Shown: piece after piece, positions 1,091-59,235 of the stretch
How positions within the stretch are numbered: position 1 is the stretch's first letter
Layout: each line of letters starts with the position of its first letter
Assembly (NCBI GenBank): GCA_903877885.1
Contig: CAIRFN010000007.1
Location: forward strand, 111-64,110
Reading direction: 5' to 3'
Length of the DNA stretch: 64,000 nt
From: an uncultured Candidatus Berkelbacteria bacterium
GTDB taxonomy: Bacteria > Patescibacteriota > UBA1384 > UBA12157
Translations under genes and position numbers: made by a program
Notes under the pieces: model-generated
What the model was told of the DNA's origin: nothing
Database searches by the model: none
Seen by the model: only the letters and a program-made list of their open reading frames with translations

Positions 1091-1130
1091 TGTCATTCCA
1101 GACCGGCGGGCCGTAGGATCTGGAATCCAG
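1091..1130. repeat. Repeat A (palindromic about 40-bp element), forward copy.
   Basis: TGTCATTCCAGACCGGCGGGCCGTAGGATCTGGAATCCAG; its ends match all other A copies. Confidence 0.85.
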
Positions 1131-1137
1131 AATTTAA

Positions 1138-1425
1138 ATGAATACATATTATGTTTATATTTTAGCAAGTGATAAAAATGGTACACTTTATATTGGCGTA
1201 ACAAACAATTTGATTCGGCGAATTTATGAACATAAAAATAAACTAGCTGATGGTTTTACAAAGAAATATAATATCGAGCAGTTAGTTTACTTTGAGCAAA
1301 CAACAGATATTGAATCAGCAATAATAAGAGAAAAACAATTGAAAGCCTGGAATCGAAAATGGAAGTTGGATATAATCGAAAAAAATAATCCTAATTGGGA
1401 TGACTTGTATTTAAAAATTCTTTAA
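1138..1425 (+). CDS. Small GIY-YIG nuclease family protein (about 95 aa).
   Basis: N-terminal YVYIL...GTLYIGVTNNLIRRIYEH matches the GIY-YIG motif (GIY...YIG, conserved R and E). The gene is bracketed by inverted copies of repeat A. Confidence 0.85.
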   Translation: MNTYYVYILASDKNGTLYIGVTNNLIRRIYEHKNKLADGFTKKYNIEQLVYFEQTTDIESAIIREKQLKAWNRKWKLDIIEKNNPNWDDLYLKIL

Positions 1426-1465
1426 CTGGATTCCAGATCCTGACGCCGTCCGGTCTGGAATGACA
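1426..1465. repeat. Repeat A, inverted copy.
   Basis: CTGGATTCCAGATCCTGACGCCGTCCGGTCTGGAATGACA. With the 1091-1130 copy it forms an inverted pair around the GIY-YIG gene. Confidence 0.85.
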
Positions 1466-1483
1466 CTAAAATCATTACAAATA

Positions 1484-1520
1484 GATTCCAGATCAAGGTT
1501 GACACCTGTCTGGAATGACA
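1484..1520. repeat. Repeat A, inverted and degenerate copy.
   Basis: GATTCCAGATCAAGGTTGACACCTGTCTGGAATGACAA. Confidence 0.7.
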
Positions 1521-1534
1521 AAATAAATTCACTA

Positions 1535-2392
1535 ATGAAAAACATAATTAATTATCCAATAATTGATTTACATGTTCACCTGCGAGATAAGGTTAGTTTT
1601 TATAGCAAACAAGCTAAATATTCCGGTTTATCAATTTTAGCTTGTATGCCAAACACTAATCCTTGTTTAGATAATTTAGAAACAATTAAACAATATTTAC
1701 TAGTTAAAAACTACACCAAAATAATCCCAGTTAGCGCAATCACGCTTGGTCGAAAAGGAAAAGAGTTAGTTAATATTGATAAGCTAAAAAAGCATGTCTT
1801 GGGCTTTTCCGACGATGGTGATTGTTTAATGAATCTAGATTTGGTTAAAGAAGCTCTGGACAAAGATGTTTTACTGATGGTCCATTTAGAACCAGAAGTT
1901 GAAATGACCCGAAAATATCTCCAAGTCTTATCTAAGGTTAAGTCTGGCCGATTACATATTCAACACGTGAGTCAAAAAGAAACAGTGGATTTAATTCGCA
2001 AAGCAAAGAAAAAGGGACTTTCTGTTACTTGCGAAACTTGTCCACATTACTTTACATTTGATAATGAAATTGAGGACAAAGCAGTTAATCCGCCATTAGG
2101 AAATAGTCAGGATATTAAAGCAATCAAAAAAGGCCTAGCTGATGGTACAATCGATTGTATTGTTTCCGATTTTGCGCCTGTTCCTAGACCTAAAAATACC
2201 GGTTTTGCTTCGTTTGATGCTTTTATCTGGCTAAGTTATGGTTTAGTTTTAGAAAGAACTCTTACGCCACAGCAATTAAAAGAAAAATTATATTTAAATC
2301 CGATGAAAATTATCAAACAAAATTTAAATCCAGAAATACTGGATTCCAGACCTGACGGCGTCAGGATCTGGAATGACAACAATAACCTATGA
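1535..2392 (+). CDS. Amidohydrolase-family protein, dihydroorotase-like and short. The last ~17 codons are encoded by a repeat A copy.
   Basis: IDLHVHLRD metal-binding HxH motif near the N-terminus and an SDFAP block near the C-terminus. The ORF-track start (1460) lies inside repeat sequence, so the internal Met at 1535 is preferred. The 3' end reads through the repeat at 2339-2378. Confidence 0.55.
   Translation: MKNIINYPIIDLHVHLRDKVSFYSKQAKYSGLSILACMPNTNPCLDNLETIKQYLLVKNYTKIIPVSAITLGRKGKELVNIDKLKKHVLGFSDDGDCLMNLDLVKEALDKDVLLMVHLEPEVEMTRKYLQVLSKVKSGRLHIQHVSQKETVDLIRKAKKKGLSVTCETCPHYFTFDNEIEDKAVNPPLGNSQDIKAIKKGLADGTIDCIVSDFAPVPRPKNTGFASFDAFIWLSYGLVLERTLTPQQLKEKLYLNPMKIIKQNLNPEILDSRPDGVRIWNDNNNL
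2339..2378. repeat. Repeat A, inverted copy lying inside the 3' end of the amidohydrolase ORF.
   Basis: CTGGATTCCAGACCTGACGGCGTCAGGATCTGGAATGACA; its core CCTGACGGCGTCAGG is a perfect palindrome. Confidence 0.85.
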
Positions 2393-5300
2393 TCAACAAA
2401 AAATTTATAACTGAATTTAAGAAACTCAATGACCATCAGCGCGAAGCGGTGGAAGCAATTGAAGGACCGGTGATGGTAATTGCCGGGCCCGGCACCGGCA
2501 AGACTCAAATCTTGGCTATGCGGATTGCCAATATTTTAAAAGAAGCTCAAGTTGATGCCGGCAATATTTTGTGTCTTACCTTTACCAACTCCGGTGTTTG
2601 GGCTATGCGAAAAAGACTACTAGAAATTATTGGTCCGGCCAGCTACAAAGTCCATGTCCACACATATCATTCTTTTTGCAATGAAGTCATCCAAACTTTT
2701 CCGGAAAAATTCCTATTTAGCCGCAATTTGGAACAAATTAACGACTTGGACCAAATTCTAACCATTAAAAAGATTTTAGATGAAAATAATTTTCAAAGAA
2801 TTAAAACCCTTAAAGCGCCGTATTATTATCAATCAGCCATCTTGCAATCAATTAATAGCTTAAAGCAAGAAAATATCAGCCCGCAGTTTTTTAAGAAAAT
2901 TGTTCAAAAAGAAATTAAGACCATCGATCAAATTGAAGATCTCTATCACGACAAAGGTCCGAATAAGGGCAAGATTAAGGCTAAGTATGTGGACCTGAAA
3001 GATCAATTGGAAAAAAACTTGGAGCTGGCCGAGGCTTACAAGCTCTATAATTTAGCACTTCAAAAAAACGGTCAATACGATTACGCCGATATGATCTTGT
3101 ACGTTGTTCGTGAACTAAGTAAAGACCAGGAACTTTTGAGTTATTATCAGGAAAAATTTCAGTATTTTTTAGTTGATGAATATCAAGACACCAACAGCGC
3201 TCAAAATGAAATCGTTCGGCTTTTATCTAGCTTCTACGATGAGCCAAACCTTTTTGTGGTTGGCGACGATGAGCAATCAATCTTTCGTTTTCAAGGCGCG
3301 GCCTTGGAAAACATTTTGGAGTTTATGAGCTTACATCCGAATGCTAAAAAGATTGTTTTAGAAGAAAACTATCGGTCGGGTCAACAGATTCTGGATGCAT
3401 CAAGAAGCCTGATTAAAAATAATCAAAAACAGATTTTCAGTGTTTTAAAGATCGATAAACATCTTGTTAGCACTAAAGCGATTGAGTCTAAAATCAACCT
3501 GGCTCAGTTTAGTTCCGATCAAACCGAAAATTTTTTCATTGCCAAGGAAATTAAAAAATTACTCAAGAAAAACATTGACCCAGCCGAAATCGCTTGTATC
3601 TACAAAGAACATCGCGATGCTACCGCTTTAGCCGAAACTTTAGCTAAAAGTAAAATTCCATACTCGCAAAACAATTCTGATAATATTTTGCTTGATCCAG
3701 ACACACAAAAGATTATCAACATGCTTAAAATCGTTGCAAATGCCGACACCGAACTTTTGTTTGAAATAATGCATTATCCTTTTTTTAAGCTTAATAAACT
3801 GGATATTTACCGACTGGCTAATTTGGCTTACAAAAACAAAACCAGTATTTTTAAAACAATGGTTGATCTTAAGAAAGAGGATTTGGCCCTGCCGGCAAAT
3901 CGTAAAAAAACTTTAACCAAATTCATTAACTTGATTTTGACTAGCTCGAGTAATTTTTCCAATCTGACTTTTGCCGCCGCTTTTGAGGTTTTGGTTAACT
4001 CGAGCGGCTATTTAAATTACTTACTTAAACTCCCGGACGCGCCGATTAAACTCAATCGCTTAAAATCACTCTTTGATGAAGTTAAAACCATTAACACTAA
4101 AAATGCCAATTTGAATCTCAAAGGTTTTTTAAACTACCTTAACGAGCTGGAAGAAAATAATTTGAAGATTATGGAACGACCGATGGAGGCGGATTTTCAT
4201 GGTGTTAAATTAATGACTGCTCACCAGGCGAAAGGTTTGGAGTTTGAATATGTTTTTATGATTCATTTAACCGATAATCATTGGGGTAACAAAACGGCTC
4301 GCAAATTAATTAAACTGCCGGCCGGTTTACTGAAAATTGAAAATGATACAGATGAAAACGACGAAGAAGAACGCCGCTTGTTTTATGTTGGTCTAACCCG
4401 GGCTAAAAAAGATATTTATCTAACTTATGCCGATATTTATAATGAAAGCGCAAGTCCGACACTGCCGAGCAAATTTTTATCTGAAATCGAGCCGAAATAT
4501 TTGACTGACTTAAATGTAACTAAATACGAACAAAACTTTGTCGAAAGATTAAAAATCGAGTTAAAACCAAGTCTGCTGGCGCCAGCCAAAGACCTCAAAA
4601 AATACTTGGCAGAACTAGCCGAAAAATTTGTTTTAAGTGCCACCAGTTTTAACGCCTATTTGGATTGTCCACAAAAGTTTTTCTATAATCAATTTTTGAA
4701 AGTGCCGAAATTAAAAGATTTTAATCTTGCCTATGGTTCGGCTGTTCACTACGGTCTGGAACTGTTTTTTAAAAAACAAAAACAGGATTTTGCCTTGCCC
4801 TCAAAGAAGTTTTTACTTAACCAATTTAAGGTTGGCCTAAAACGGGAAATTCTTTCACTGGCCGAGCTTAAAAGAGCCTTACATTTGGGACGGAAGGTTT
4901 TGAGTGAATACTATGATTTTTATGCCGCCGACTGGACTCGCCACATTCCGATTGCCGCCGAATATAATTTTAGCTATCACAATGTTCATTTTGGTCCAAT
5001 TCCAATTACCGGAAAAATCGACAAGATCGAGCTTCTTGATAAAATCGGTAAATCTGTCAAAATCGTTGATTACAAAACTACCACGGCCAAAAGTCAAAAC
5101 TATTTACTGGGGCTTACCAAAGACGAAGATTTGTCCTATTTATATCAAGCTTTCTTTTACAAACTTTTGGCCGAAAATGATCCGTTGTTTGACTGGGTCA
5201 TTGCCGAAGTCGAGTTTGATTTTATTTCTTCGGACAAAGGCAAATTTACTAAAGTCAGTATTCCGATTGACCAAGCGGCCTATGAAGAATTTAAAAAACA

Positions 5301-5406: not shown

Positions 5407-5443
5407 TCTTTAATATCTTAAAAATAACTGATAGAATGAATTT

Positions 5444-6322: not shown

Positions 6323-6366
6323 ATAAACCACGGCCCACTTCCAGGGTGGGTTATAAGGTCAAAAAT

Positions 6367-8524: not shown

Positions 8525-8533
8525 GGAGCTAAC

Positions 8534-9100: not shown

Positions 9101-9102
9101 TC

Positions 9103-9636: not shown

Positions 9637-9650
9637 TGAATTGAATGATA

Positions 9651-9687
9651 GATTCCAGATCCTGCGGCCCGCCGGTCTGGAATGACA
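9651..9687. repeat. Repeat A, inverted copy.
   Basis: GATTCCAGATCCTGCGGCCCGCCGGTCTGGAATGACA. Confidence 0.8.
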
Positions 9688-12498: not shown

Positions 12499-13404
12499 AT
12501 GAACATTATTGGTTACAGAAAAATTTGGTATACAATTAGCGGCATTTTAATTATTCCTGGCATTATCGCTCTCTTTGTATGGGGTTTAAAACCCGGGATC
12601 GATTTTAAAGGTGGCACCATTATTGAAACAAAGTTTAGTCAAAATACTTCAGTTGACCAGGTTAAAAATGGCTTAGGGGAGTTACAACTTAAAAATCTAA
12701 CCGTGCAAACAACTTCGCCAAATACTTTTTTTATCCGAACTGAACCAATTACGCAAGATCAACACTCAAAAATTGGTGAGAGCCTTATAAAAGTAGGGGA
12801 GAACCAAGAATTAAGTTATCAAACTGTTGGTCCAACTGTCAGTAATGATTTGAAGACAAAGGCGGTTGTGGCTGTTATTTTAGCTAGTTTTGCCATTATT
12901 TTTTATGTCGCATTTGCTTTTCGTCAAGTCCCCCGTCCAGCCAGTTCTTGGAAATTTGGGGTAGCGGCAGTGCTCGCTTTAATCCATGATTTAGCTTTTG
13001 TCACTGGTATATGGGCGATTCTAGGCCATTTTCTTGGTTATGAAATCGATTCCTTGTTTATAACCGGTTTACTTACGATTATGGGTTTCTCGGTTCACGA
13101 TACCATCGTTGTCTTTGATCGTATCCGAGAAAACCTGCGTAAACATCCGTCATTGGGCTTTGAAGAAAATGTGAATAATAGTATTATCCAAACCATCAAT
13201 CGGTCACTTAATACGTCTTTGACCGTTCTAATCGTTTTGGCGGCCTTGTATTTCCTTGGCGGTGCTTCGCTTAAGCATTTTGTCTTATTACTCTTAATCG
13301 GCATTACCATTGGCACATATTCATCGATATTTAATGCTTCGCCGATCTTAGTCAGTTGGCAAGGATGGGCCATGAACCGTCTTAATAAAAAGACTGCGGC
13401 CTAG
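12499..13404 (+). CDS. secF: Protein translocase subunit SecF.
   Basis: GIDFKGGT motif and C-terminal TM bundle. Immediately follows secD. Confidence 0.9.
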   Translation: MNIIGYRKIWYTISGILIIPGIIALFVWGLKPGIDFKGGTIIETKFSQNTSVDQVKNGLGELQLKNLTVQTTSPNTFFIRTEPITQDQHSKIGESLIKVGENQELSYQTVGPTVSNDLKTKAVVAVILASFAIIFYVAFAFRQVPRPASSWKFGVAAVLALIHDLAFVTGIWAILGHFLGYEIDSLFITGLLTIMGFSVHDTIVVFDRIRENLRKHPSLGFEENVNNSIIQTINRSLNTSLTVLIVLAALYFLGGASLKHFVLLLLIGITIGTYSSIFNASPILVSWQGWAMNRLNKKTAA

Positions 13405-13723
13405 GCCCGTGTAGAGCCTTATTTAACAGGTTCAAAGTCTAACTAAAAATACGATCGTAAGCCAAGTAAACGTCTGCAAATCTACTTAACTCACGATCGT
13501 ATTTTTAGTAAAATAACTACTATTATATAGTATATATAGTAGTGGAGACAGGTGAGAGTCAGGTTGAAAAACAGCACTACAGGCTGACTAGTTAGCTCCT
13601 GGTATAAAAAGATAATAGGTTAGTTGATATGATTTTACCTGTTATTCGTCAAAATGATGTAAATAATGCGTCTGAAAATAAACCTTTTGCGACGCAACAA
13701 TAGTATCAGATATAAAGATCTAT

Positions 13724-13752
13724 AAAAACACTTTTATTTAAGAGTGTTTTTG
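13724..13752. terminator. Intrinsic terminator-like hairpin in the secF/ATPase convergent intergenic region.
   Basis: AAAAACACT...AGTGTTTTTG. Confidence 0.45.
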
Positions 13753-13890
13753 ATTAAATAAAGGATTTCAAATTTTGTTAAATTACTCTATTTTGCAATG
13801 TTTAGCGCCCGACATTAAAATAAAACTACTTTTGAAAAAGTGCGAAAAATTCGAAATTCGCCTCTCTCGCCCTCTCCCCCAGTCTATTTC

Positions 13891-13924
13891 CAAAAATAAC
13901 AGGTTTGTGAACCTGTTATTTTTG
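13891..13924. terminator. Bidirectional intrinsic terminator.
   Basis: AAAAATAACAGGTT-TGTG-AACCTGTTATTTTT: an 11-bp stem flanked by an A-run and a T-run, about 70 nt past the stop of the 941-aa ATPase gene. Confidence 0.65.
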
Positions 13925-13996
13925 CGGAAAACTAGAAAACAACATGTCGCTAGACTGTTATTTTTTACTCAATCACCTATTTGTGTCTATATCATC

Positions 13997-16822
13997 TTAA
14001 ATTTTAACCGATTTACCCTCTTCTAAAGGCTCTGCATTACTATTTGCTAGGCTTTTCATAATAATAGCTTTATCTTCTTCAATCTCTGAATTGATTGGCT
14101 TAAGCACTACTGGAGCTATAACAGCTGGCTCTTCGGTAGAAGTTTCTGGCTCTAATGCCGCCAGACGATCCTTTTGCCATTGTTCCATTTTATCATCAAA
14201 AACTTCCGCTTTTTCTTCAGTTTTTTGAATTTTTTCTTGGACCGTTTCTTCAGTTAAAGGTTGATCTTCGGTGCCACCGCCCAAGTACCAACGAACATCG
14301 CCGGGGTTTTGGACTTCGCGGTAATAGGTCTCCCCTATTTTTGGTGGGATTTTCACCACTAACTTCTTTTGCTGTTTAGTCATAATCTCTTCAATTTTTG
14401 GTAAATCCGCAATTTGACCAATTTGGGCTTCAACATATTCCCGATTCTTACTGTAAGTTTTCCGGGAAAACTCAATGATTTTTTCCACATTATTAAACTT
14501 AGTGGCGCTTCGCGGTAAGGTCTTGGCAGAAAACGCCGGGCTCGTCACACTATCAATGGACATCTTCACATAGACATGATAGTTATCGAGGTTAATTAAA
14601 TCATTGGCTTCGAAAATCGGCATAAACTCTGATTGTAGAAAATCCGCATCCGGTGAGCCAACGCGGAAAGTAATAATGGTCCCAACGTTACCGATAACCG
14701 CATCGCGGACCGGTTCAATCATTTGGGCCACATATTGATGAGCCATAATTAAGTTCAAATGATATTTGCGAGCTTCAGACAAAATAGTGGCAAACGATTC
14801 GGTCGCAAAGTTTTGAAACTCATCAACATAGAGATAGAAATCGCGACGATCTTCTTCTTTGATGCTGGCGCGGCGCATCGCAGTTAACTGAATTTTGGTA
14901 ATCATAAGAGAACCAAGCAAGGCCGAAGCATCTTCACCAATCTCACCAGTAGAAAGATTGACCAAGAAGATTTTGCCCGTATTCATAATTTCTTCAATAT
15001 TGATGGTCGACTTTGGCTGGCCAATAATATTACGAATCGTGGAGCTGGAAAGAAACTGACCAACTTTGTTTTGAATTGGAGCAATGGCTTCAGTTCGAAA
15101 CTTTGGATCGTATTGCTCATATTCGTTGACAAAGAAATCTTTAATCACCGGATCGGTAATTTGGGTGACGACTTTGTCGCGATAGGATTTATCAACCAGA
15201 AGTCTGGTTACGCCGAGCATAGTGGAATTTGGCACATCCAAGAGCGCCAGGACCGTGTTACGCAAAATGTATTCCAGTCTTGGACCCCAACTTTCACCAA
15301 AGATTTTTTTGAAAATACCGACGACACCAGAGGCGATAATGTTTTTCAAATCTGGATCAACGTTTTCCAATGGATTAAAAGCCACCGGATAGTTTCGATC
15401 GGCTGGCGAGAAAATAACCACATCTTTAATTCGCTCTTCGGGAATATATTCAATAATATGATTAATCAAATCACCATGAGGATCGACCACGGCAATACCA
15501 CGACCTTCGCGAATATCATCAATGGCCATATTTTCCAGCAAAGTTGATTTACCGGTCCCAGTCTTACCAATGACATACATATGATAGCGGCGATCCGGGA
15601 TCTTAATCCCAAATTTGTGTTTCAAATGCCTGAAGTCGGTTTGACCAAAAATCGTTAAATCTTGCGGGTCCACATTTTCTTCAATTGGCAAGTTCGCTGG
15701 CGGTTCGCCTTTTTTACTTCCGGCCCAAACAATGTTTGGCGTGGCGACGGTAATACTCGGTAAATGGTAAATGCTAGCTAATTCTTCGGTATTTAGAACA
15801 TAGCCTTCATCGATAAACAAACGGTGAGCATAATCAGCCCAGGCCGTCGGAGAGGTGTTAAGCGAACCGGATTTAAAACCATTCATATTTAAAAGATTAA
15901 ATTGTTTAAAAGCGCTCACGATTTCGGTAATTTTAGCTCTAGCTGTATTTTCATTGGGCGCGACTGATAATAAACGGATTTTGGTCCCGAAGCCCAATTT
16001 AGTCACTTTGGTTTCAATGCCTTTAAGTCCTGCCTCTTCAGTCCCGGACAGTTTAGTTTCTTCAGCCTTAACTCCACGAGCCGATTCTGGTGTAGTGCCA
16101 GTCATAATTGTGGTAAAAATCGCCGAGAGACTTCTGGCGACAGTACCCCAGAAAATCTCACTTAGATTTTTGCCTTTGACAGTGCCAGACTTAACCGCTT
16201 TAATATGTTTCATGCCCTTGGATTGCCAATCATCAGGCACAGGTTTAACCATAATTTGCATCCAGATTTGTTCATCACGTTCGATTTTTGATAAGACACT
16301 AGTAATAGCAGACAAAGGATCGACTTCAAAATTTAAGAAGGATTTAATCGGAAAAACATCGTTATTGGTTAAACTAATTTCGGTCCCAGCAACTTTGGCG
16401 CTACCAGAATTAACATGTTCAGCTTCTTCTAGAGTGTAGTCATCGACTTCGTTAATTTCCGCAGTCGGATATTGGGCATAGATCTGACCGGTGACAAAAT
16501 CTTTTAAATGAGTTGGAGTGCAAACATAGAAATAGATGTATTTATCACGCGCCGCAATTTCAAAACTAATATATTCTTGATAAGGATTTTCTGCTCGGTA
16601 AATACCATGAATAGCCGAAAACATTTGTTCGGCAGCTAATGGTGTTTTTTCATTGTTTTTTGGGACCAGAATTCTAAGGACAACAAAACGTATTTTCGAA
16701 AACCATTCGATTTTCTGGTTTTGTTGGCGATTCTTGATGATTTTAGAAATAATCAGCATTGGCATCAAAATAACTCCGAGTAGAATTAAGCCTTTAATAA
16801 ATAGTGGTAATAATGTTTGCAT
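13997..16822 (-). CDS. Membrane-anchored FtsK/HerA-superfamily ATPase, TraG/VirD4 (T4CP)-like, with a long N-terminal domain and an acidic C-terminal tail.
   Basis: N-terminal TM helix; Walker A VIGKTGTGKST followed by AVVDPHGDL (T4CP DPKGE-like); Walker B YLYVDEFQNF. Paralog of the 17384-19900 gene. Confidence 0.7.
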   Translation of the reverse strand: MQTLLPLFIKGLILLGVILMPMLIISKIIKNRQQNQKIEWFSKIRFVVLRILVPKNNEKTPLAAEQMFSAIHGIYRAENPYQEYISFEIAARDKYIYFYVCTPTHLKDFVTGQIYAQYPTAEINEVDDYTLEEAEHVNSGSAKVAGTEISLTNNDVFPIKSFLNFEVDPLSAITSVLSKIERDEQIWMQIMVKPVPDDWQSKGMKHIKAVKSGTVKGKNLSEIFWGTVARSLSAIFTTIMTGTTPESARGVKAEETKLSGTEEAGLKGIETKVTKLGFGTKIRLLSVAPNENTARAKITEIVSAFKQFNLLNMNGFKSGSLNTSPTAWADYAHRLFIDEGYVLNTEELASIYHLPSITVATPNIVWAGSKKGEPPANLPIEENVDPQDLTIFGQTDFRHLKHKFGIKIPDRRYHMYVIGKTGTGKSTLLENMAIDDIREGRGIAVVDPHGDLINHIIEYIPEERIKDVVIFSPADRNYPVAFNPLENVDPDLKNIIASGVVGIFKKIFGESWGPRLEYILRNTVLALLDVPNSTMLGVTRLLVDKSYRDKVVTQITDPVIKDFFVNEYEQYDPKFRTEAIAPIQNKVGQFLSSSTIRNIIGQPKSTINIEEIMNTGKIFLVNLSTGEIGEDASALLGSLMITKIQLTAMRRASIKEEDRRDFYLYVDEFQNFATESFATILSEARKYHLNLIMAHQYVAQMIEPVRDAVIGNVGTIITFRVGSPDADFLQSEFMPIFEANDLINLDNYHVYVKMSIDSVTSPAFSAKTLPRSATKFNNVEKIIEFSRKTYSKNREYVEAQIGQIADLPKIEEIMTKQQKKLVVKIPPKIGETYYREVQNPGDVRWYLGGGTEDQPLTEETVQEKIQKTEEKAEVFDDKMEQWQKDRLAALEPETSTEEPAVIAPVVLKPINSEIEEDKAIIMKSLANSNAEPLEEGKSVKI

Positions 16823-20424: not shown

Positions 20425-20518
20425 TGTCATTCCAGACAGGTTGGCAACCTAGATCTGGAATCCAGGAAAATTATTCTGGATTCTTGATGTCGAGTTACCA
20501 CTCGGCTCGAGAATGACA
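20425..20518. repeat. Composite repeat A+B unit.
   Basis: TGTCATTCCAGACAGGTTGGCAACCTAGATCTGGAATCCAGG, a 9-nt AT linker, then TCTGGATTCTTGATGTCGAGTTACCACTCGGCTCGAGAATGACA. Lies upstream of the ATPase operon. Confidence 0.85.
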
Positions 20519-21789: not shown

Positions 21790-21833
21790 TCTGGATTCTT
21801 GATGTCGGATTACCATCCGGCTCGAGAATGACA
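21790..21833. repeat. Repeat B copy.
   Basis: TCTGGATTCTTGATGTCGGATTACCATCCGGCTCGAGAATGACA, between rplL and tgt. Confidence 0.8.
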
Positions 21834-27593: not shown

Positions 27594-27601
27594 AATGTTA
27601 A

Positions 27602-27684
27602 TGTCATTCCGGACAGGTTGGTAACCTAGATCCGGAATCTAGTCTGGATCCCCGATGTTGAAATACCATTCAACTCGAGGATGA
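27602..27684. repeat. Composite repeat A+B unit (diverged).
   Basis: TGTCATTCCGGACAGGTTGGTAACCTAGATCCGGAATCTAG then TCTGGATCCCCGATGTTGAAATACCATTCAACTCGAGGATGACA. Confidence 0.8.
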
Positions 27685-27698
27685 CAGAATAAATATTT

Positions 27699-35340: not shown

Positions 35341-35420
35341 TTAATTATTTAATGCAGAATGCAGAATTAATTAATTTATTTTTTAATTCTTTTATTCTGA
35401 ATTCTGAATTATCTAATTAT
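35341..35420. repeat. Repeat D copy 1 (AT-rich palindromic element).
   Basis: Contains ATGCAGAATGCAGAATTAATTAAT...TTCTGAATTCTGAATTA. Immediately downstream of the recR stop. Confidence 0.5.
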
Positions 35421-37013: not shown

Positions 37014-37055
37014 CTGGATTCTTGATGTCGAGTGCCACTCGGCTCTAGAATGACA
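37014..37055. repeat. Repeat B copy.
   Basis: CTGGATTCTTGATGTCGAGTGCCACTCGGCTCTAGAATGACA, downstream of the topA stop. Confidence 0.8.
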
Positions 37056-39227: not shown

Positions 39228-39285
39228 ATTATTTAATTCAGAATGCATAATTAATTAATTCTGAATTCTGCATTATCCAATTAAT
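39228..39285. repeat. Repeat D copy 2.
   Basis: TTCAGAATGCATAATTAATTAATTCTGAATTCTGCATTA, immediately downstream of the dprA stop. Shares the CAGAATGCA / TTAATTAAT / CTGAATTCTG blocks. Confidence 0.5.
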
Positions 39286-49184: not shown

Positions 49185-51131
49185 TTACTGATACACTACA
49201 CCCAAATTACCATTACTGTATTTATTAATCTTAAAATTGCCATTTGTAGCTAGCCAATAGATAGGTTGATCATTAAAACTTATCCCGAAATCATAATATT
49301 GAAAGAAATAACTAAAAGAACTGGAAGTAAGATTAAAAATCTTAAATATATCCTGATCTTGACTAGTCCATGAATAAGAAGCAGTTACTGCTTTCGGTGT
49401 AAAATTATTCCACGGTACAACTCCGAGATTATCATTCAAGCCAATACTCATATTAGATGTCCGATAACCACCATTTAATCCAGTACCAGACCGAAGTGCA
49501 TCTGTGACATCACCTTTAACCGCGATCCAATACATACCGCAAGGATTAGCAACAGGTACCGTAACATCATAAGTATAAGTAACCCATCCACCATTATAAG
49601 GATCATAATTAAAATAAGTTTCTTCAGCGGTTTCGCCAGTCTTTTTCTGATAAGAACAATCTGTAGCCACTGAATCATCCCCGGCATATTGGAAACCATC
49701 TTTAGTCACATTGAAAACTTTGGACATTTGATCATTTCCTTGTCCAGCGTAATTTCTAGATATTACCACAGTAGGCGCCGAGTCAAAAAACCCGGCTGGA
49801 AAATTGACTTGGTTAATATTATCATCAATCGGACTATTAGCATGAAAACCACCAGTAATAACATTTTGAATTTGACCTTTTAGGATAATATAGTAAGCAC
49901 CACAGGTATTTGCAGGTTTACTACTTGAATCAGTACAGCCACTACCACCGGCACCATTAATTCCAAAGCTATTCGAAAAAAGATGATTAATATTTGCCAT
50001 GATACTACTTCGCGCCCAAGAGTTCACAGAGATTGTTATTGCTGACGGTTGAGCATTGCCGGTAAAAGGTTGAAATAATGTATTCCAAGCACCCGTAATC
50101 TGGTCATCATAACTTGCTAAATTAGGGTTAACAAACCCTGACCGGATTTCGGCTGTTTCGATAATTACAGGATTAGCTATCACTGCCACGCTGACCGAAG
50201 CGCTTGCCGGTGTCGTGCCTTCGGCGCCATAACAAGTAATTGAATAAGCCGTGGTAGTTGTGGGCGAAATTGCTTGAGTACCGTTTAGGCCAGAAACAAC
50301 AAAATTAACAGCTGAACAAATATTAGTATTGGTCGATGTCCAGGTTAAAGTGCTGGAACTGCCAGAAGTAATCGTAGTTGGATTAGCAACTAAAGTAACT
50401 GTTGGCGGCACTAATGGCGGTGGGATATTATTTACAGTAACATCGGCCGTTGCATCGACTAAAGCACCAGCGCTATTATAACAAGTCAGATGATAAGTCG
50501 TAGTAGGAGCAGTTGAAGGGGAAATTGGTGCAGAGCCGTTTATTGAATTGGAAGTATTAAAATCTGCGCTAGTACAATGATCAGTATTTATTGATGTCCA
50601 AATTAAAGTCGATGGCGCTCCCAAAGTAACAACACTGGGACTAGCATAGAATGATGTAATTAGTGGCGCTGGCGGCGCCACAGGTGGAGTTACTGTAATT
50701 TTTACGCTAGTATTAGCTGGGGTTGTACCATCAGCACCAATACAATTAATATAATATGTTGTATCTACAGTTGGACTCACTGGTTGTGTGCCATAAATAT
50801 TATTTGGATGAAAATCCGAATTACTACTTGTACAACTAGTAGCATTTTTGGGACTCCAAGTTAAAGTACTAGAACTACCAGAATTAATCGATGTCAGGCT
50901 AGTCGTCAAAGTCACTGTTGGATTTTGAACAATAGTTGGATTTGGTAACAACAAATCAAAATTACTATCAACTTGTTGGCCATTTTCATCCCAAAAAACA
51001 TCAACACCAATGTGGCGACCGGGATTAGTTGCGGCAAAAACTTTGGTACCAAAAGTTAGAACTAGAATAAAAATCAGTCCGGCAAATAACAAGGCTTGAA
51101 AATTGAATTTGTGTTTTGTCATATTTTGCAA
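49185..51131 (-). CDS. Large secreted protein with Ig-like repeats; candidate pilus-associated adhesin, paralog of the 52996-54789 gene.
   Basis: Signal peptide plus a shared N-terminal module TFGTKVFAATNPGRHIGVDVFWDENG. Repeated ~90-aa T/S-rich units (TLTWTS...C...GT...SPT...Y.I.C). Shared C-terminal NGNFKINKYSNG.LG..YQ. Confidence 0.6.
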   Translation of the reverse strand: MQNMTKHKFNFQALLFAGLIFILVLTFGTKVFAATNPGRHIGVDVFWDENGQQVDSNFDLLLPNPTIVQNPTVTLTTSLTSINSGSSSTLTWSPKNATSCTSSNSDFHPNNIYGTQPVSPTVDTTYYINCIGADGTTPANTSVKITVTPPVAPPAPLITSFYASPSVVTLGAPSTLIWTSINTDHCTSADFNTSNSINGSAPISPSTAPTTTYHLTCYNSAGALVDATADVTVNNIPPPLVPPTVTLVANPTTITSGSSSTLTWTSTNTNICSAVNFVVSGLNGTQAISPTTTTAYSITCYGAEGTTPASASVSVAVIANPVIIETAEIRSGFVNPNLASYDDQITGAWNTLFQPFTGNAQPSAITISVNSWARSSIMANINHLFSNSFGINGAGGSGCTDSSSKPANTCGAYYIILKGQIQNVITGGFHANSPIDDNINQVNFPAGFFDSAPTVVISRNYAGQGNDQMSKVFNVTKDGFQYAGDDSVATDCSYQKKTGETAEETYFNYDPYNGGWVTYTYDVTVPVANPCGMYWIAVKGDVTDALRSGTGLNGGYRTSNMSIGLNDNLGVVPWNNFTPKAVTASYSWTSQDQDIFKIFNLTSSSFSYFFQYYDFGISFNDQPIYWLATNGNFKINKYSNGNLGVVYQ

Positions 51132-51133
51132 AA

Positions 51134-51175
51134 CCTAGATTCCGGATCTAGGTTGCCAACCTGTCCGGAATGACA
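51134..51175. repeat. Repeat A, inverted copy.
   Basis: CCTAGATTCCGGATCTAGGTTGCCAACCTGTCCGGAATGACA, between the Ig-like protein and the vWA protein. Confidence 0.8.
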
Positions 51176-51186
51176 AAAAGGAAATT

Positions 51187-52917
51187 CTAATAATTATAGG
51201 TCACGTGGATGGTGGCGCCAGATGGTGGCACAAAGGAACCAACGAAAACAATCGCTTGTTTAAGTTCATTATAAGTCCAACCATTATCACCTTGAGCAAT
51301 AACCGTGCCATTGACCGTAACCTTGATCGTCGAAACGATTGGTTTATTCTTTAGTGTAAAACTACTCGCTAAATCAGCAATATTATTACTGATTAAATCC
51401 ATAATTTTTTGATAGTTAGCTATAGTGCCAGTGGAATTAAAAATGCTAGCAATAAGCCCGCCTGTCTCTGTGGCCGCTTGCTGATATCGATCGCTTCCGA
51501 GAGTATCACTAGTTGTACCACAATTTGGATTTACCGAATCATTAATATTTGAGGGCCTGGTTGTTCTAGATGTATCTACAACTACATCAATCACAACTTT
51601 CTTGGGATTAGCTTTTAACGCTCGAAGTCGATTAATATACGACATCGTACTGCCACAAGATTGATCATTTTCGTCAGACACAATAATCGCAATTAACCAA
51701 GCGTCAGACCTAAGAAAACCATAATTTTTATTAATGGTGGTTCCCCATTTTTGAGGCGCACTGACACTGCCATTTTCAGCAGCTTTGGCTGCCGCTACCA
51801 AACCCTGTTCGACACTTTGACTAATTCCGACCAAAACATTGCTTTTGAAATAATTAATAATATTTGACACTGTCAAATAATTAGGATCTAGAATCGGGTA
51901 AGCGCCAACAAAAAGACCATCGGTGTTTGCTTCAGCACCACCATTTTTAACTGTTGTGATTCCAATTTTATAATCAATTTTATTATTCGGATCGGTCAAA
52001 TTATTAATAAAAGCGGCGGCATTATCTTTTAAAGCATCTTGATCATCGTACATTGAACCAGAATTATCCACCACCCAAATAATATCGGCTTTGTTATTCG
52101 CAGAATTTTGAGTAAAAACTTCATCAGCCGAGTTTGGAAGCGGAGCTGGCGGAGTCGGTGGAGTCGGCGGAGTCGGCGGCGAAGGTGGCGCCGGGTTAAC
52201 CGTAATTATGGCTTCAGCGCTATTTGAAATATCATCATTATTTTTACAGGTTAAGTTATAATTGAAATTTGTAGTAGTGGCTGCTGTTGGTGAAACATCT
52301 TGATTGCCACTAGAAATAGAAGTTGATGTAAAACCAGACCCAGTTCTTGTACAACTTTTAACATCTGGTGATAAAATCCAGGTTAATTTACTTGAATTAC
52401 CAGAAATGATAGTTGTTGGATTGGCAGCCAAAGTCACTTTTGGTTCAACTGTAACGGTTATACTTTGACTAGTATGCGGATTAGTAGCTGTCGGATCGCC
52501 ATCACAATCAATCTTATAAGTTGTCTTGGCTGTTGGATTATCTGATTTATTACCGGATTCACTATTTGTTGCGGTTGAAATTGCAAAGCTACCCAAGTGA
52601 GATGAACTACAACTTTTAACATGTTTCACTGTCCAATTTAATGTTACTGAATCGCCATAGGTAATACTTGTCTGACTAGCAGTTAAAGTAATACTTGGAT
52701 CTGGAGCTGGTGGCGGATTCAAAACTGCAAAAGTGCCAGTGACAGTTTGGCTTTGATCATCCCAAGAAACTAGAACTTGAGCCCGGCGAACCAGATTCAA
52801 AGAACTAGCTTGGAAAAAACCTTCGTTTAAAAAAACGCCAACCATAATCGCTAAAACCACTGCCACCGCGGCAGTATAAAATAGAAATTTTTTGTTTTTG
52901 ATTAGTTTTTTAAACAT
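51187..52917 (-). CDS. Membrane-anchored protein with Ig-like repeats, a (PTP)n linker and a C-terminal von Willebrand factor A domain (MIDAS DNSGS); PilY1-like candidate tip adhesin.
   Basis: N-terminal TM; TLTAS/TLTAN repeats; PPSPPTPPTPPTPPAP; IIWVVDNSGSMYDD...AF..N MIDAS motif. Confidence 0.65.
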   Translation of the reverse strand: MFKKLIKNKKFLFYTAAVAVVLAIMVGVFLNEGFFQASSLNLVRRAQVLVSWDDQSQTVTGTFAVLNPPPAPDPSITLTASQTSITYGDSVTLNWTVKHVKSCSSSHLGSFAISTATNSESGNKSDNPTAKTTYKIDCDGDPTATNPHTSQSITVTVEPKVTLAANPTTIISGNSSKLTWILSPDVKSCTRTGSGFTSTSISSGNQDVSPTAATTTNFNYNLTCKNNDDISNSAEAIITVNPAPPSPPTPPTPPTPPAPLPNSADEVFTQNSANNKADIIWVVDNSGSMYDDQDALKDNAAAFINNLTDPNNKIDYKIGITTVKNGGAEANTDGLFVGAYPILDPNYLTVSNIINYFKSNVLVGISQSVEQGLVAAAKAAENGSVSAPQKWGTTINKNYGFLRSDAWLIAIIVSDENDQSCGSTMSYINRLRALKANPKKVVIDVVVDTSRTTRPSNINDSVNPNCGTTSDTLGSDRYQQAATETGGLIASIFNSTGTIANYQKIMDLISNNIADLASSFTLKNKPIVSTIKVTVNGTVIAQGDNGWTYNELKQAIVFVGSFVPPSGATIHVTYNY

Positions 52918-52948
52918 ATTTTTTTACTCCTCGAACATTTTATGAAAT

Positions 52949-52988
52949 CTGGATTCCAGATCCTGATGCCATCCGGTCTGGAATGACA
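52949..52988. repeat. Repeat A, inverted copy.
   Basis: CTGGATTCCAGATCCTGATGCCATCCGGTCTGGAATGACA. Confidence 0.8.
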
Positions 52989-52995
52989 AGACAGA

Positions 52996-54789
52996 TTACT
53001 GATATGTTGTGCCAAGGCTACCATTTGAATATTTATTAATTTTAAAATTACCATTGGCGCCCACCCAGAAAAATGGTCTCGTGGTCGATGAACCAAAACA
53101 ATAAACTCTTGGGGAAAATTGAAAACTATTCTGGACAATATTAAAAATACTATAAATATCTTGTTGGCCATCAATATAACCCGTGCTGCCAAAAGCAGCG
53201 ACAATCGCTTTAAGATTCGTGGCCGAGCTGATATTTGTTGTGCCTGTAGCATTGTCACCATATGGACTAGCGCCGCAATCTTCTCCTGTACCGGAACGAA
53301 TAGCATCAGTAACATTTCCTTTAATTGCAATCCAATGAACACCACACCAGTTGGCGGCTGAATTGCCATTCAAATCTAAACTGGAAGTATCATCACAGTC
53401 AGTCGTATAATAACAAGGATTATTAACACCATCTTCAACGCATTCAAGATGCGAAGCTACTCCGGCAGTTTGAATATATGTCAAATCGCCAGTATATTGA
53501 AAACCATCTTTAGTAATATTCATCACCATTGGCATTTGCTCACTTTGTTCAAACCAGTTTCTCGAAAGAATAACTGCGGTCGGCGCAGTTGTGAAAGAAC
53601 CGGCTGGAAAATTAACTTGATTAATAGTTTTATTCGGGTCAGAACTAATATTGTAATTTGCATGAAAACCGCCAGTAATTACATCTTTGACTTGACCAGT
53701 TAGGCCGATGTAATAAACACCGCATCGATTCGTGGTTGTAGTTACACCTCTGGCGGTTCTAACGATATCTGGGTAACCAGTGGATGAATCTTTACAGCCA
53801 TCGATTTGAGTTGTGCCATCGCCAGAATAGCTAAAAGAGTTTGATGTCAGACTGTGCGCTTTTGGCATTTGATCGTTGCCACCCCAAAAGTTACGAGCAA
53901 TAACTAAAGCTGACGGATTTCCAAGCGTAAATGGTTTAAAAGTAGCTTTAAAATTGTCTGTGCCGGTATTGGCAATAAACCCAGAACGGATTTCGGCCGT
54001 GCCCTCGATGGTTGGCGTCGGAGTAGGAGGAGAAGCAACAGTAATGCTAACTTGTTTGTAAGCTGATACTGTTTTTGTAGCATCATAACATCTGATTTTA
54101 TAAACCGTATCTGTCGTTGGATGAACAATCGCACTACCATTCAAGCCTGGATTATAACCCGTACCTTGATCGTCACAACTAGTTGCGTTAGTTGAAGTCC
54201 AAACCAAAGTTGCTGTTTCGCCAGAGTTGATAGTCGCACTCGACAGACCATTAACAGTTAAAGTTGTGTCAAGTATTGAAACGGTTACACTAGTAGTAGC
54301 TGGTGGTGTACCCGTCGCACCGACACAATTTATATTATAAGTTGTAGTAGTTGCAATTGGATGAACTATTGCCGAACCACTGGTGCTTATTGGATTTATA
54401 TAATTAGGATCAGTATTAATGGTTGTACAACTGTTAGCATGTGTCGATGACCAAGTCAGAATCGCAGACCCTTGAGAATTGATAATTGCGCTCGACGAAC
54501 CATTTACTGTTAAAGTAACTATCGGAGCCAAAACTACTGGTAAAGGATTATCCGGTGTAGTATCCGAAGGCGGTTCTGCCGGAGGATTAACAATAATATT
54601 CTGGTTTGGTAATAACAGATCGAAATTACTATCGACTGTGATGCCATTTTCGTCCCAAAAAACATCGACACCGATATGGCGGCCAGGATTAGTTGCGGCA
54701 AAAACTTTGGTACCAAAAGTTAGGACTAATACGAAAATAATTAGTGAAAATAACAAGGATTGAGAATTGAATTGTCTTAATTTCTTCAT
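52996..54789 (-). CDS. Large secreted protein with Ig-like repeats; paralog of the 49185-51131 gene.
   Basis: Identical N-terminal module (TFGTKVFAATNPGRHIGVDVFWDENG) and C-terminal module (ANGNFKINKYSNGSLGTTYQ). Confidence 0.6.
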   Translation of the reverse strand: MKKLRQFNSQSLLFSLIIFVLVLTFGTKVFAATNPGRHIGVDVFWDENGITVDSNFDLLLPNQNIIVNPPAEPPSDTTPDNPLPVVLAPIVTLTVNGSSSAIINSQGSAILTWSSTHANSCTTINTDPNYINPISTSGSAIVHPIATTTTYNINCVGATGTPPATTSVTVSILDTTLTVNGLSSATINSGETATLVWTSTNATSCDDQGTGYNPGLNGSAIVHPTTDTVYKIRCYDATKTVSAYKQVSITVASPPTPTPTIEGTAEIRSGFIANTGTDNFKATFKPFTLGNPSALVIARNFWGGNDQMPKAHSLTSNSFSYSGDGTTQIDGCKDSSTGYPDIVRTARGVTTTTNRCGVYYIGLTGQVKDVITGGFHANYNISSDPNKTINQVNFPAGSFTTAPTAVILSRNWFEQSEQMPMVMNITKDGFQYTGDLTYIQTAGVASHLECVEDGVNNPCYYTTDCDDTSSLDLNGNSAANWCGVHWIAIKGNVTDAIRSGTGEDCGASPYGDNATGTTNISSATNLKAIVAAFGSTGYIDGQQDIYSIFNIVQNSFQFSPRVYCFGSSTTRPFFWVGANGNFKINKYSNGSLGTTYQ

Positions 54790-54807
54790 TATTCTTTCCT
54801 TTGTATG

Positions 54808-55224: not shown

Positions 55225-55244
55225 TTGTACTCCTTTATTTATGA

Positions 55245-55339
55245 TGTCATTCCAGACAGATTGGCAATCTTGATCTGGAATCCAGGAAAATTGTTACTGG
55301 ATCCCCGATGTTGAATTACCATTCAACTCGAGGATGACA
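55245..55339. repeat. Composite repeat A+B unit.
   Basis: TGTCATTCCAGACAGATTGGCAATCTTGATCTGGAATCCAGG then CTGGATCCCCGATGTTGAATTACCATTCAACTCGAGGATGACA, between minor pilin genes. Confidence 0.85.
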
Positions 55340-55353
55340 AGGAGAAATTATTA

Positions 55354-55899: not shown

Positions 55900-55927
55900 T
55901 TTTTCCTTTAGAATATTATGGACCAGC

Positions 55928-57119: not shown

Positions 57120-57120
57120 T

Positions 57121-57909: not shown

Positions 57910-57928
57910 ATGGTATTAAGTTTTTGCT

Positions 57929-58023
57929 TGTCATTCCAGACAGGTTGGCAACCTAGATCTGGAATCCAGGACAATTAATCTGGATTCTTGATGTCGGATT
58001 AACCATCCGGCTCGAGAATGACA
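57929..58023. repeat. Composite repeat A+B unit.
   Basis: Near-identical to the 20425 and 59141 copies, between pilD and the pilin-like gene. Confidence 0.85.
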
Positions 58024-58035
58024 ATTCGATTACGT

Positions 58036-58587
58036 TTACATATCTGCGCAAGTGAAGGTTTTGCCGTTAACTAAACCAGTATCTGGACATTGGCTATTTT
58101 GGAAAGTATTGGGGAAACTGGTACACAATCTAACTTTACCGGCATCATTGGCGCAAATCGTTGGTTGATCCGGGCTATTGGTTACATTTTTACTTGGCAA
58201 AAGCGCGGAAACAGTCCAATGAGTGGCGTCACTTTGAATTGTAACATAACCAGCAAAGTCTGATTGATTATTGTCAATATCACTGGCAAATTTAGCAATA
58301 TTAGTCGCGGTTTCCGGTGAAACTAAAGCTGGTTGCCAGCTAGCTGTTAGCTGACCGCAACTTGGCACGGTTGTCGGGTTGCATTTTCCAACCAGATAAG
58401 TCCCGAGTTGATTATTGACCTGAAAAATCGAAAGTTGTTGAGCTATACCTTTAATATCCGAACGCACCCGAATATCTTGAGAATTTCGTTTAACCGAATA
58501 ACCAGCTATAACTACACCATAAGCTAAACCGCCAACAATTAAAATAGTTAAAGCAATTTCTAAAAATTTAACACCTTTTTCATTCAT
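58036..58587 (-). CDS. Pilin-like protein with a non-canonical N-terminus.
   Basis: MNEKGVKFLEIALTILIVGGLAYG: hydrophobic alpha-1-like helix with a Glu, but no G/FTLIE cleavage motif. Confidence 0.45.
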   Translation of the reverse strand: MNEKGVKFLEIALTILIVGGLAYGVVIAGYSVKRNSQDIRVRSDIKGIAQQLSIFQVNNQLGTYLVGKCNPTTVPSCGQLTASWQPALVSPETATNIAKFASDIDNNQSDFAGYVTIQSDATHWTVSALLPSKNVTNSPDQPTICANDAGKVRLCTSFPNTFQNSQCPDTGLVNGKTFTCADM

Positions 58588-58680
58588 ATTTTCCTTTTGA
58601 TATTATTCATCTATATCTTTTCTCAAGGGATCGCCCCACCTCCGCCGCTTGGCGGTTGAGGCGATTTGCTTGAAAACTAA

Positions 58681-59121
58681 TTATGAAGCAGGACAGACAG
58701 TCGCAGTCAAAGCAATCGGTGTAGAAGTAGAAGCTAAGGCTTTGCTTGTACCTGCACTATCGATACAATAATAACCTGTAGATGTTTTAGCCTCGATAAC
58801 ATAGGTTGTTGCATTCAACGCTTGATAATAATTTCCACCAGTTGGAACATTAGCTAGAATATCCGTAACAACTGTTTTATAATTACCAGTAAGATCGGCA
58901 ACAGCTGGACTTAACACTGTAGGATCAGCAGCAGTGATAGCAAAAGTATTAGCAGTATTATCTGATTCTAACTGGGTGCGAATTTGTGTTAGACCAGAGA
59001 TTACTCTTGTGTCTTTAGCTTTACTACGTGCTGAATTCAATGAAACTAGAACCATGGCGGCCAAGATACCAATAATGGCGATGACGACCAAAAGTTCAAT
59101 AAGTGTAAAAGCTTTTTTCAT
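58681..59121 (-). CDS. pilA: Type IV major pilin (PilA-like).
   Basis: MKKAFTLIELLVVIAIIGILAAMV leader and a C-terminal Cys pair (C...C). Confidence 0.8.
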   Translation of the reverse strand: MKKAFTLIELLVVIAIIGILAAMVLVSLNSARSKAKDTRVISGLTQIRTQLESDNTANTFAITAADPTVLSPAVADLTGNYKTVVTDILANVPTGGNYYQALNATTYVIEAKTSTGYYCIDSAGTSKALASTSTPIALTATVCPAS

Positions 59122-59140
59122 TTTTCTCTCCTTTTATTAC

Positions 59141-59235
59141 TGTCATTCCAGACAGGTTGGCAACCTAGATCTGGAATCCAGGATAATTAATTCTGGATTC
59201 TTGATGTCGGATTACCATCCGGCTCGAGAATGACA
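59141..59235. repeat. Composite repeat A+B unit.
   Basis: TGTCATTCCAGACAGGTTGGCAACCTAGATCTGGAATCCAGG then TTCTGGATTCTTGATGTCGGATTACCATCCGGCTCGAGAATGACA, between pilA and pilC. Confidence 0.85.

Follow-up and report, generated by a model that had tools for sequence, protein, structure and literature searches.

Short palindromic repeats, each tagged at one end with TGTC, are scattered through a stretch of 64,000 nucleotides (nt) from an uncultured Candidatus Berkelbacteria bacterium (assembly GCA_903877885.1, contig CAIRFN010000007.1, positions 111 to 64,110), referred to below as the window and used for all coordinates. These repeats are probably hairpins of the CGTC/TGTC-tagged family of repetitive extragenic palindromic (REP) sequences, in other words Ssn-related motifs (SRMs), and their partner would be the small Ssn nuclease encoded by open reading frame (ORF) 1138–1425, an enzyme predicted to cut tagged single-stranded DNA (ssDNA). 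The system has been described previously (2013, 2025) and is not a new type of element; the finding is a further example of it. What is new is modest, namely a two-tier, bulged class of hairpins missed by the published search pattern, a host belonging to the Candidate Phyla Radiation (CPR) and clearer evidence that the dimers formed by these repeats mirror the gene cassette.

CGTC-tagged REPs are characterized by a CGTC or TGTC tag, a stem of 8–9 bp starting with AT and a tail close to CCA; they occur in five phyla, mostly as inverted dimers and often as two subtypes, and their superfamily includes dRS3 of Neisseria as well as RPE-4 and RPE-6 of Rickettsia (Di Nocera 2013, PMC3733652). No dedicated transposase or other enzyme was found for them, and mobilization by other transposases was left open (PMC3733652). 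SsnA (cd10448) is a GIY-YIG protein of ~94 residues that binds the Neisseria hairpin (NTS) solely as ssDNA and cuts it a few nucleotides upstream, ignoring duplex DNA, RNA and the reverse strand, and it lowers the integration of transforming DNA that bears the hairpin (Chenal 2025, PMC11893778). The three bases before the palindrome are the most important for cleavage and the C right after it the most important for binding, while mutation of Y6, Y17 or E64 abolishes the activity of the Neisseria meningitidis enzyme. A motif lies near 71% of ssnA homologues and on both sides of 42% of them, and the NTS–ssnA–NTS arrangement has been likened to an insertion sequence (PMC11893778).

In the window, TGTCATTCCAGAC has 14 matches with at most two mismatches against 1.25 expected, GCTCGAGAATGACA has seven against 0.27 and GGAATGACA has 12 against 0.43, and no shuffle scored as high in any of the three cases; one of the 14 matches to TGTCATTCCAGAC, at 56898, lies within a gene and is attributed to chance. 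A search for the tag plus the stem recovers 19 tagged hairpin units at 14 places (12 of type A and seven of type B), arranged as five A+B dimers, seven solo units and two A units flanking a gene of 95 codons. The first-pass annotation, made from the sequence alone, had claimed at least 14 copies, which this census bears out, and six fused A+B copies, where five are counted; it had also omitted the key feature, the GIY-YIG gene 1138–1425 bracketed by two repeats. The G+C content of the window is 39.3%, and a scan of it for transfer RNA and transfer-messenger RNA genes finds none. The units and the gene are listed below; every type B unit is forward on the minus strand.

1091–1130, plus strand: type A hairpin of subtype A1, left arm of the ssn cassette, TGTC tag outward.
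1138–1425, plus strand: ssn, encoding a single-domain GIY-YIG nuclease of the Ssn family, 95 residues (Pfam PF01541, E 3e-15; gonococcal homologue 57.8% identical; Y7, Y18 and E65).
1426–1465, minus strand: type A hairpin (A1), right arm of the ssn cassette, tag outward.
1481–1520, minus strand: solo type A hairpin, short variant of the A2 core.
2339–2378, minus strand: solo type A hairpin with its inner stem-loop flipped relative to tag and tail, in the 3′ end of ORF 1460–2392.
9648–9687, minus strand: solo type A hairpin (A1), in the gap between a NUDIX gene and an ORF of 104 codons.
20425–20518, plus strand: A+B dimer (A 20425–20465, plus; B 20476–20518, minus), tags outward, in the gap between tgt and an ORF of 136 codons.
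21791–21833, minus strand: solo type B hairpin, 12 nt 3′ of the rplL stop codon.
27602–27686, plus strand: A+B dimer (A 27602–27642, plus; B 27644–27686, minus), occupying the ybaB–pth gap, which is empty in relatives.
37014–37055, minus strand: solo type B hairpin, 13 nt downstream of topA.
51135–51175, minus strand: solo type A hairpin (A2) in the pilus locus, separating two large ORFs.
52949–52988, minus strand: solo type A hairpin (A1) in the pilus locus, separating two large ORFs.
55245–55339, plus strand: A+B dimer (A 55245–55285, plus; B 55297–55339, minus), in the gap between a pilin gene and an ORF of 226 codons.
57929–58023, plus strand: A+B dimer (A 57929–57969, plus; B 57980–58023, minus), in the gap between pilD and an ORF of 183 codons.
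59141–59235, plus strand: A+B dimer (A 59141–59181, plus; B 59193–59235, minus), in the gap between a pilin gene and pilC.

When read on the strand that starts with TGTC, type A and type B share one design, of which they are two subtypes; type B, first presented as a kind of its own, is the second subtype of the same tagged hairpin seen on the other strand. Each unit comprises, in order, an unpaired 5′ TGTC, an 8-bp basal stem starting with AT (ATTCCAGA/TCTGGAAT in type A, ATTCTCGA/TCAAGAAT or ATCCTCGA/TCGGGGAT in type B), a bulged A on the 3′ arm, one C–G or G–C pair, an upper stem of 5–7 bp that is free in sequence but paired and closes on a loop of 3–5 nt, and a tail C-Y-A-G (CCAG or CTAG), the palindrome being followed by an invariant C. 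Units measure 40–44 nt, a single A unit spanning TGTCATTCC...GGAATCCAG, and their DNA folds at −4.6 to −11.7 kcal/mol, with both strands folding well. The 8-bp stem thus encloses 13–22 nt that form a second stem-loop, in contrast to the loops of 4–5 nt described for CGTC REPs, a few families of which have loops of other lengths (PMC3733652). Fixed in sequence are the TGTC tag, found in all 19 window units, the base of the stem (ATTC.../...GAAT) and the C directly after the palindrome, which the unit finder did not require and which is present in 19/19 window units and in 96–99% of 413 units elsewhere. In the dimers, A is forward on the plus strand and B on the minus strand, so that both TGTC tags face outward; this layout gives rise to the TGTCATTC...GAATGACA terminal inverted repeat that had been taken for the termini of type A. 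Such a repeat does exist, but only in the A+B dimers and around gene 1138–1425.

The gene fits exactly between the A units 1091–1130 (plus) and 1426–1465 (minus), whose tags point outward, its ATG lying 7 nt past the tail of the left hairpin and its stop codon abutting the tail of the right one. The GIY-YIG domain covers residues 4–77 of the product, and no other domain is found. Its single match in Neisseria gonorrhoeae extends over 95% of the query with E 3e-29, where the homology threshold for SsnA in PMC11893778 is E < 1e-10; this match comes from a plasmid collection that includes two mislabelled N. gonorrhoeae chromosomes, and the gonococcal locus is surrounded by canonical NTS CGTCATTCCCGC..GCGGGAATCC. 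In an alignment of 10 homologues that includes the gonococcal protein, Y7, Y18, R28, H32 and E65 are invariant, and Y7, Y18 and E65 are the equivalents of Y6, Y17 and E64 of N. meningitidis SsnA. An Escherichia coli YhbQ-type housekeeping GIY-YIG protein as the closest relative was rejected in view of the strong match to Neisseria SsnA. NCBIfam has no model specific for the nuclease, a sequence search of the PDB matches no solved structure, and searches of PADLOC and PHROGs return nothing informative.

Hairpin–ssn–hairpin cassettes with outward tags recur in Rhizobium, in Aeromonas and in the metagenome loci L223 (B–ssn–B) and L155 (A1–ssn–B), the latter having the layout of an A+B dimer with the gene in its spacer; moreover, all four strong ssn matches in type B metagenome loci abut a hairpin. 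The Ssn family counts at least 7,619 members at E ≤1e-20. The nearest homologues of the window protein are 70–84% identical and are named Doudnabacteria, Campylobacterota, Zixibacteria and Omnitrophota. For Pth, identity in the same database reaches only 76%, a comparison that points to transfer of ssn between phyla. Short NTS-like hairpins adjoin the 78%-identical Ssn of Campylobacterota and other stems adjoin an 82%-identical Ssn, and the hairpins near close homologues all keep TGTCAT, the base ATT(T)CC/GGAA(A)T and the end ATCCAG. This suggests that the enzyme may read the tag, the base of the stem and the tail, whereas the distal part would need only to pair.

Two observations concern ssn loci elsewhere. 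A Bdellovibrionales contig (L016) carries two ssn homologues, at 1400–1816 and 3318–3608, 1.5 kb apart, that adjoin different hairpin subtypes (CGTCATGCCAGC..GCTGGCATCC and TGTCATTCCGGAC..GATCCGGAATCC), which hints at paired enzyme–hairpin specificities within one genome. At 4001–4315 of locus L254, the frame of an 82%-identical ssn homologue runs into the downstream hairpin and ends in the tail ...DWIPNQVGNDRQ. The like applies to L117, downstream of the gene. The gonococcal repeat, when translated through, yields PVIPAQAGIR, and peptides encoded by such hairpins probably account for many unusual C-terminal tails and very small hypothetical ORFs in annotations.

The proposal that the variable, self-complementary cores are kept by compensatory change holds for both types, in the window and elsewhere. 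In the seven type B units, 90% of the cells are paired and four of 15 pairs have changed on both sides, and pairing falls to 23–53% when the partner columns are slid; the corresponding values for 11 type A units, in an alignment registered by hand with N placeholders and fitted to the structure, are 96%, five of 14 and 5–47%. Given the hand-fitted A alignment and the shared descent of the copies, these counts are modest evidence on their own, and the copies found elsewhere provide much stronger evidence. Among 113 distinct type A copies, the outer five core bases pair at 3.86 of five positions within a copy versus 1.76 between copies, with 23 different perfect arms, and at the pair beside the bulge C–G covaries with T–A (85 and 23 cases, with five exceptions). 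Among 94 distinct type B copies, the values are 4.43 within and 2.96 between copies, with 17 different arms. Shuffling and refolding the core of each copy is a weak test, because short GC-rich cores fold easily, and from 1 to 120 of 200 shuffles fold as well as the original. The view that selection acts on structure and not on sequence needs to be divided: the upper stem does keep its pairing, but at the tag, the stem base and the post-palindrome C it is the sequence that stays fixed, and these positions are the critical ones for cleavage and binding by Ssn (PMC11893778).

The same features bear on the idea, put forward for REPs and bacterial interspersed mosaic elements (BIMEs), that the hairpins are sites in duplex DNA for a dimeric protein or for a nucleoid or topology factor, the palindrome reflecting two-fold symmetric binding. 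The near-palindromic sequence, the intergenic location of the units and the position of one of them beside topA would suit such sites. The conserved asymmetry (a single tagged end, a bulged A on just one of the arms) does not, and an upper stem whose sequence varies while its pairing is kept agrees with a folded single strand rather than with a site recognized in duplex form; overall, this explanation is very improbable.

Confinement of the copies to the window would have told against the first-pass annotation, but both types occur in many phyla, and its view of a family of structured palindromes resembling REPs or miniature inverted-repeat transposable elements (MITEs) is supported. The type A pattern is found in at least 113 stretches of species-representative genomes; the hosts among the matches listed are Bradyrhizobium, Afipia and other Alphaproteobacteria, Desulfosarcina (Desulfobacterota), Bacteroidales, Ignavibacteria, Bdellovibrionales, Patescibacteria and others, and an inverted partner follows most of the listed copies at a distance of a few to 60 nt. 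The type B pattern is found in at least 120 metagenome stretches, many of them from groundwater, with a median G+C content of 39%. Neighbouring units elsewhere have their tags outward in 78 cases, inward in five and in the same direction in four in a first set, and in 59, three and 11 cases, respectively, in a second set. A species-specific REP is ruled out by the wide distribution of both types.

As had been noted, the units are placed in short gaps, 3–97 nt from the neighbouring ORFs, with the exception of 2339–2378, which forms the 3′ end of an ORF. Most of them lie inside runs of same-strand genes, 3–20 nt from a start or stop codon, and are probably transcribed. This placement speaks for hairpins that act in RNA, as terminators, RNase sites, messenger RNA stabilizers or translation modulators, with selection for RNA folding accounting for the compensatory changes; the good folding of both strands and the proposal that many REPs act as RNA elements (Di Nocera et al., PMC3733652) speak for it as well. 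Nevertheless, a role in RNA is unlikely. No unit overlaps a terminator-like site in a terminator and promoter scan of 20–28.5 kb and no T-run follows the hairpins, while Rfam gives no match at the gathering threshold for the whole window and nothing relevant at E ≤1 for 55.2–59.3 kb. Solo units are antisense to the genes at 1–13 kb and sense at 14–64 kb (a small sample), and therefore have no consistent transcript orientation. The same hairpins are found in many phyla in unrelated gene contexts, and the conserved unpaired tag and post-palindrome C are the determinants for an enzyme that cuts ssDNA and fails to bind RNA (PMC11893778). With no terminator overlap, no Rfam match and a cognate enzyme family acting on ssDNA and not on RNA, the earlier suggestion of a transcribed RNase or terminator hairpin is not upheld. 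Incidental effects on operon expression are possible, because units lie so close to start and stop codons.

Regarding orientation, all seven solo units are forward on the minus strand, though gene orientation and GC skew flip near 13.5 kb, and the orientation is identical in all five dimers, again a small sample. At ~13400–14000, genes converge (plus strand on the left, minus strand on the right) and the GC skew passes from positive to negative; this region may be a replication terminus or a mere orientation switch, and because the change of sign coincides with the flip in gene orientation, replication and transcription are inseparable in one window. The unit 2339–2378 is peculiar in that its interior is the reverse complement, with one change, of the interior of 1426–1465; it encodes the last 17 codons of the amidohydrolase-like ORF 1460–2392 (...LDSRPDGVRIWNDNNNL*), and a flipped interior of this sort is seen in only 1–2 of the 113 distinct copies elsewhere.

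By homology with SsnA of Neisseria and Wolbachia, the window nuclease would bind a hairpin only when the tagged strand is single-stranded and would then cut a few nucleotides 5′ of TGTC, leaving duplex DNA, RNA and the opposite strand untouched. Single strands are produced in DNA uptake, replication and repair. The window encodes a type IV pilus locus (PilB, PilT, PilC, PilD and pilins), DprA, RecR, TopA and two TrwB-like ATPases, and DNA uptake in this CPR bacterium is likely in view of the type IV pilus and DprA. In a host equipped with pilus, dprA and recR, the most likely effect would be a sequence-marked cutting of ssDNA that modulates the recombination of incoming DNA, as in N. meningitidis. 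An A+B dimer, we infer, would put one tagged hairpin on each strand, so that either exposed strand could be cut.

The first-pass suggestion of a DNA uptake or recombination signal was near the mark, but the sign is opposite to that of an uptake sequence, since the Neisseria hairpins mark incoming single strands for cutting and lower integration. The DNA uptake sequences (DUS) of Neisseria are likewise short, abundant genomic signals that affect natural transformation; however, they are non-palindromic 10–12-mers, often located in genes, that promote uptake via a pilus protein, whereas NTS/Ssn lowers integration after uptake. A DUS was rejected as an explanation.

The hairpin–ssn–hairpin segment 1091–1465, of 375 bp, is laid out like a minimal insertion sequence, and the A+B dimers are arranged likewise but lack the gene. 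A spacer GA-N-AATT-R-W-T of 10–11 nt is common to four of the five dimers, and dimers 20425 and 57929 are 95% identical across 75 nt including the spacer; the shared spacer sequence therefore indicates that each dimer was copied in one piece. Among named relatives, those closest to the window Pth are Candidatus Berkelbacteria, and the gene order dprA–topA–recR ... prfA–ybaB–pth–L1 ... L10–L12 ... tgt–TrwB-like ATPases matches that of Berkelbacteria CP011213.1. Comparison of related genomes at orthologous gaps, as the first-pass annotation had recommended, finds these gaps empty. The ybaB–pth gap of 105 nt consists here of 8 nt, the 85-nt dimer and 12 nt; the closest relative, whose Pth is 76% identical, has 29 nt there (taken from coordinates alone) and another relative has 2 nt, and a gene occupies the gap in other relatives. 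The gap after tgt is 221 nt long here, with its dimer, and 98, 37 and 48 nt, without hairpins, in three relatives. Altogether, ~72 kb of syntenic DNA from five relatives contains two tagged hairpins, versus 19 in 64 kb here.

The common polarity of cassette and dimers, the A–ssn–B arrangement in a relative, the copying of whole units, the empty orthologous gaps and the movement of ssn between phyla allow a bolder interpretation, possible but doubtful, in which the 375-bp unit would be a self-contained mobile element, the 85–95-bp dimers its gene-less derivatives and Ssn the enzyme that mobilizes CGTC REPs, with the element, once spread into operon junctions, marking incoming single strands strand-symmetrically for cutting. 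If so, this element would be among the smallest known and Ssn would be the long-missing mobilizing enzyme of CGTC REPs. GIY-YIG enzymes hydrolyse DNA and are not known to rejoin it. Remnants of the ends of ssn were sought in the dimer spacers, and nothing convincing was found.

Spread as units, together with terminal inverted repeats, would also be in keeping with miniature elements moved by an ordinary transposase encoded elsewhere, either of the REP-associated tyrosine transposase (RAYT)/IS200 type or another, the GIY-YIG gene being a passenger. RAYT moves GTAG REPs, and the involvement of other transposases was left open for CGTC REPs (PMC3733652). This alternative is decidedly unlikely: no transposase gene is present among the scanned ORFs adjoining window units, target-site duplications are not visible, CGTC REPs have no transposase association (PMC3733652) and the link with ssn is systematic, as seen from the 71% of ssnA homologues with a motif nearby (PMC11893778) and from the metagenome matches abutting a hairpin (4/4). 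The REP/REPIN and RAYT system (IS200/IS605-type Y1) does share tetranucleotide-tagged short hairpins, inverted pairs, one flanked enzyme gene per family and a folded ssDNA substrate, but its tag is GTAG and its HUH/Y1 transposase cuts and rejoins, whereas Ssn is a hydrolase of the GIY-YIG type, for which joining activity is not known. A RAYT-type system was rejected because the tag is TGTC and not GTAG and because no transposase domain is found in the scanned ORFs adjoining the units.

Several points weigh against the interpretation of the repeats as hairpins served by the window Ssn, or against the spread proposed for them. Binding and cutting of the window hairpins are predicted from homologues at 58% identity. 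The published SRM pattern HGTCWYN(0-2)YYVSBRHN(0-5)WNVSBRGN(0-2)RNCYNB has no hit in the window and recovers none of the 19 units; it misses them because it allows 0–5 nt between the arms, where these units hold a second stem-loop. Although the pattern was made by hand as a search aid and does not define the motif, it would class the genome as motif-free. At loci L016 and L131 the tags face inward, so the outward polarity of cassettes, though common, has exceptions. Altering the sequence of the palindrome with its structure preserved abolished activity in N. meningitidis (PMC11893778), and it is therefore not certain that the one ssn gene in the window serves A1, A2 and B. No target-site duplication is visible at the units, which leaves current mobility unproven; the relatives with empty gaps are only 63–76% identical in Pth; and same-species metagenome contigs are identical at the ybaB–pth and rplL–tgt sites, with no insertion polymorphism.

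The likeness to the Ssn/NTS–SRM system (PMC11893778) lies in a single-domain GIY-YIG protein of ~95 residues with conserved Tyr, Tyr and Glu, in a gene bracketed by oriented hairpins, in (C/T)GTC 5′ of the palindrome and C just after it, and in many intergenic copies and many phyla; the units also fall within the 20–50 nt range of SRM hairpin lengths. The differences are that the window hairpins are two-tier with a bulged A and 40–44 nt long, compared with 28 nt for NTS, that the host is a Berkelbacteria-like CPR bacterium, from a group unmentioned in the text of PMC11893778, and that activity is predicted here. With the CGTC REPs of PMC3733652, the units share the CGTC/TGTC tag at one end, the AT-start stem of 8–9 bp, the tail close to CCA, the prevalence of inverted dimers of differing subtypes and occasional copies in gene ends. 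They differ from them in the 13–22 nt stem-loop that takes the position of the loop and in the presence of ssn between two units, where that study found no dedicated enzyme.

A conspicuous CPR repeat family is thereby explained by a published system and need not be chased as an unknown RNA. The two-tier class is common in Alphaproteobacteria, Bacteroidales, Patescibacteria and groundwater metagenomes, and since the published pattern misses it, surveys based on that pattern undercount Ssn–hairpin pairs. The window also supplies a new candidate Ssn together with three natural substrate subtypes that have the same tag, stem base and tail and differ above the bulge, a set that lends itself directly to testing what the enzyme recognizes in the hairpin. 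In addition, the co-occurrence of type IV pilus, DprA, RecR and dense Ssn sites makes the link with DNA uptake testable in a lineage thought to be uptake-dependent.

One unit may bear on promoter formation. At 27580–27607 (minus strand), the outward-facing end of a hairpin tag (GGAATGACA) provides a −35-like ATGACA separated by 16 nt from an AATAGT directly upstream of pth; the match is to consensus only, and units could create outward promoters, as some insertion sequence ends do.

The remaining observations concern other features of the window. A second, AT-rich palindromic repeat, TTAAT[G/T]CAGAAT[G/T]CA[G/T]AATTA, occurs with its inverted partner at 35349–35412, beside the 3′ end of recR, and at 39233–39276, in the topA–dprA gap (six matches versus 0.07 expected), and is unrelated to the tagged hairpins. 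The segments 13997–16822 and 17384–19900 encode adjacent paralogous TrwB/TraG-like coupling-type ATPases of 941 and 838 residues, 71% identical over 275 nt (14640–14914 and 17676–17950), and the same pair is found in Berkelbacteria relatives. At 49185–54789, beside the pilin genes, three large tandem ORFs of 648, 576 and 597 codons without a Pfam match share repeated segments of 61–81% identity (families D5, D6, D11, D17, D18 and D20); they are probably paralogous pilus-associated surface proteins, with solo hairpins in the gaps between them. Finally, a 133-nt direct repeat of 71% identity (30749–30881 and 30920–31052, spacing 171 nt) lies in an ORF of 202 codons (30539–31147) and is presumably an internal protein repeat.

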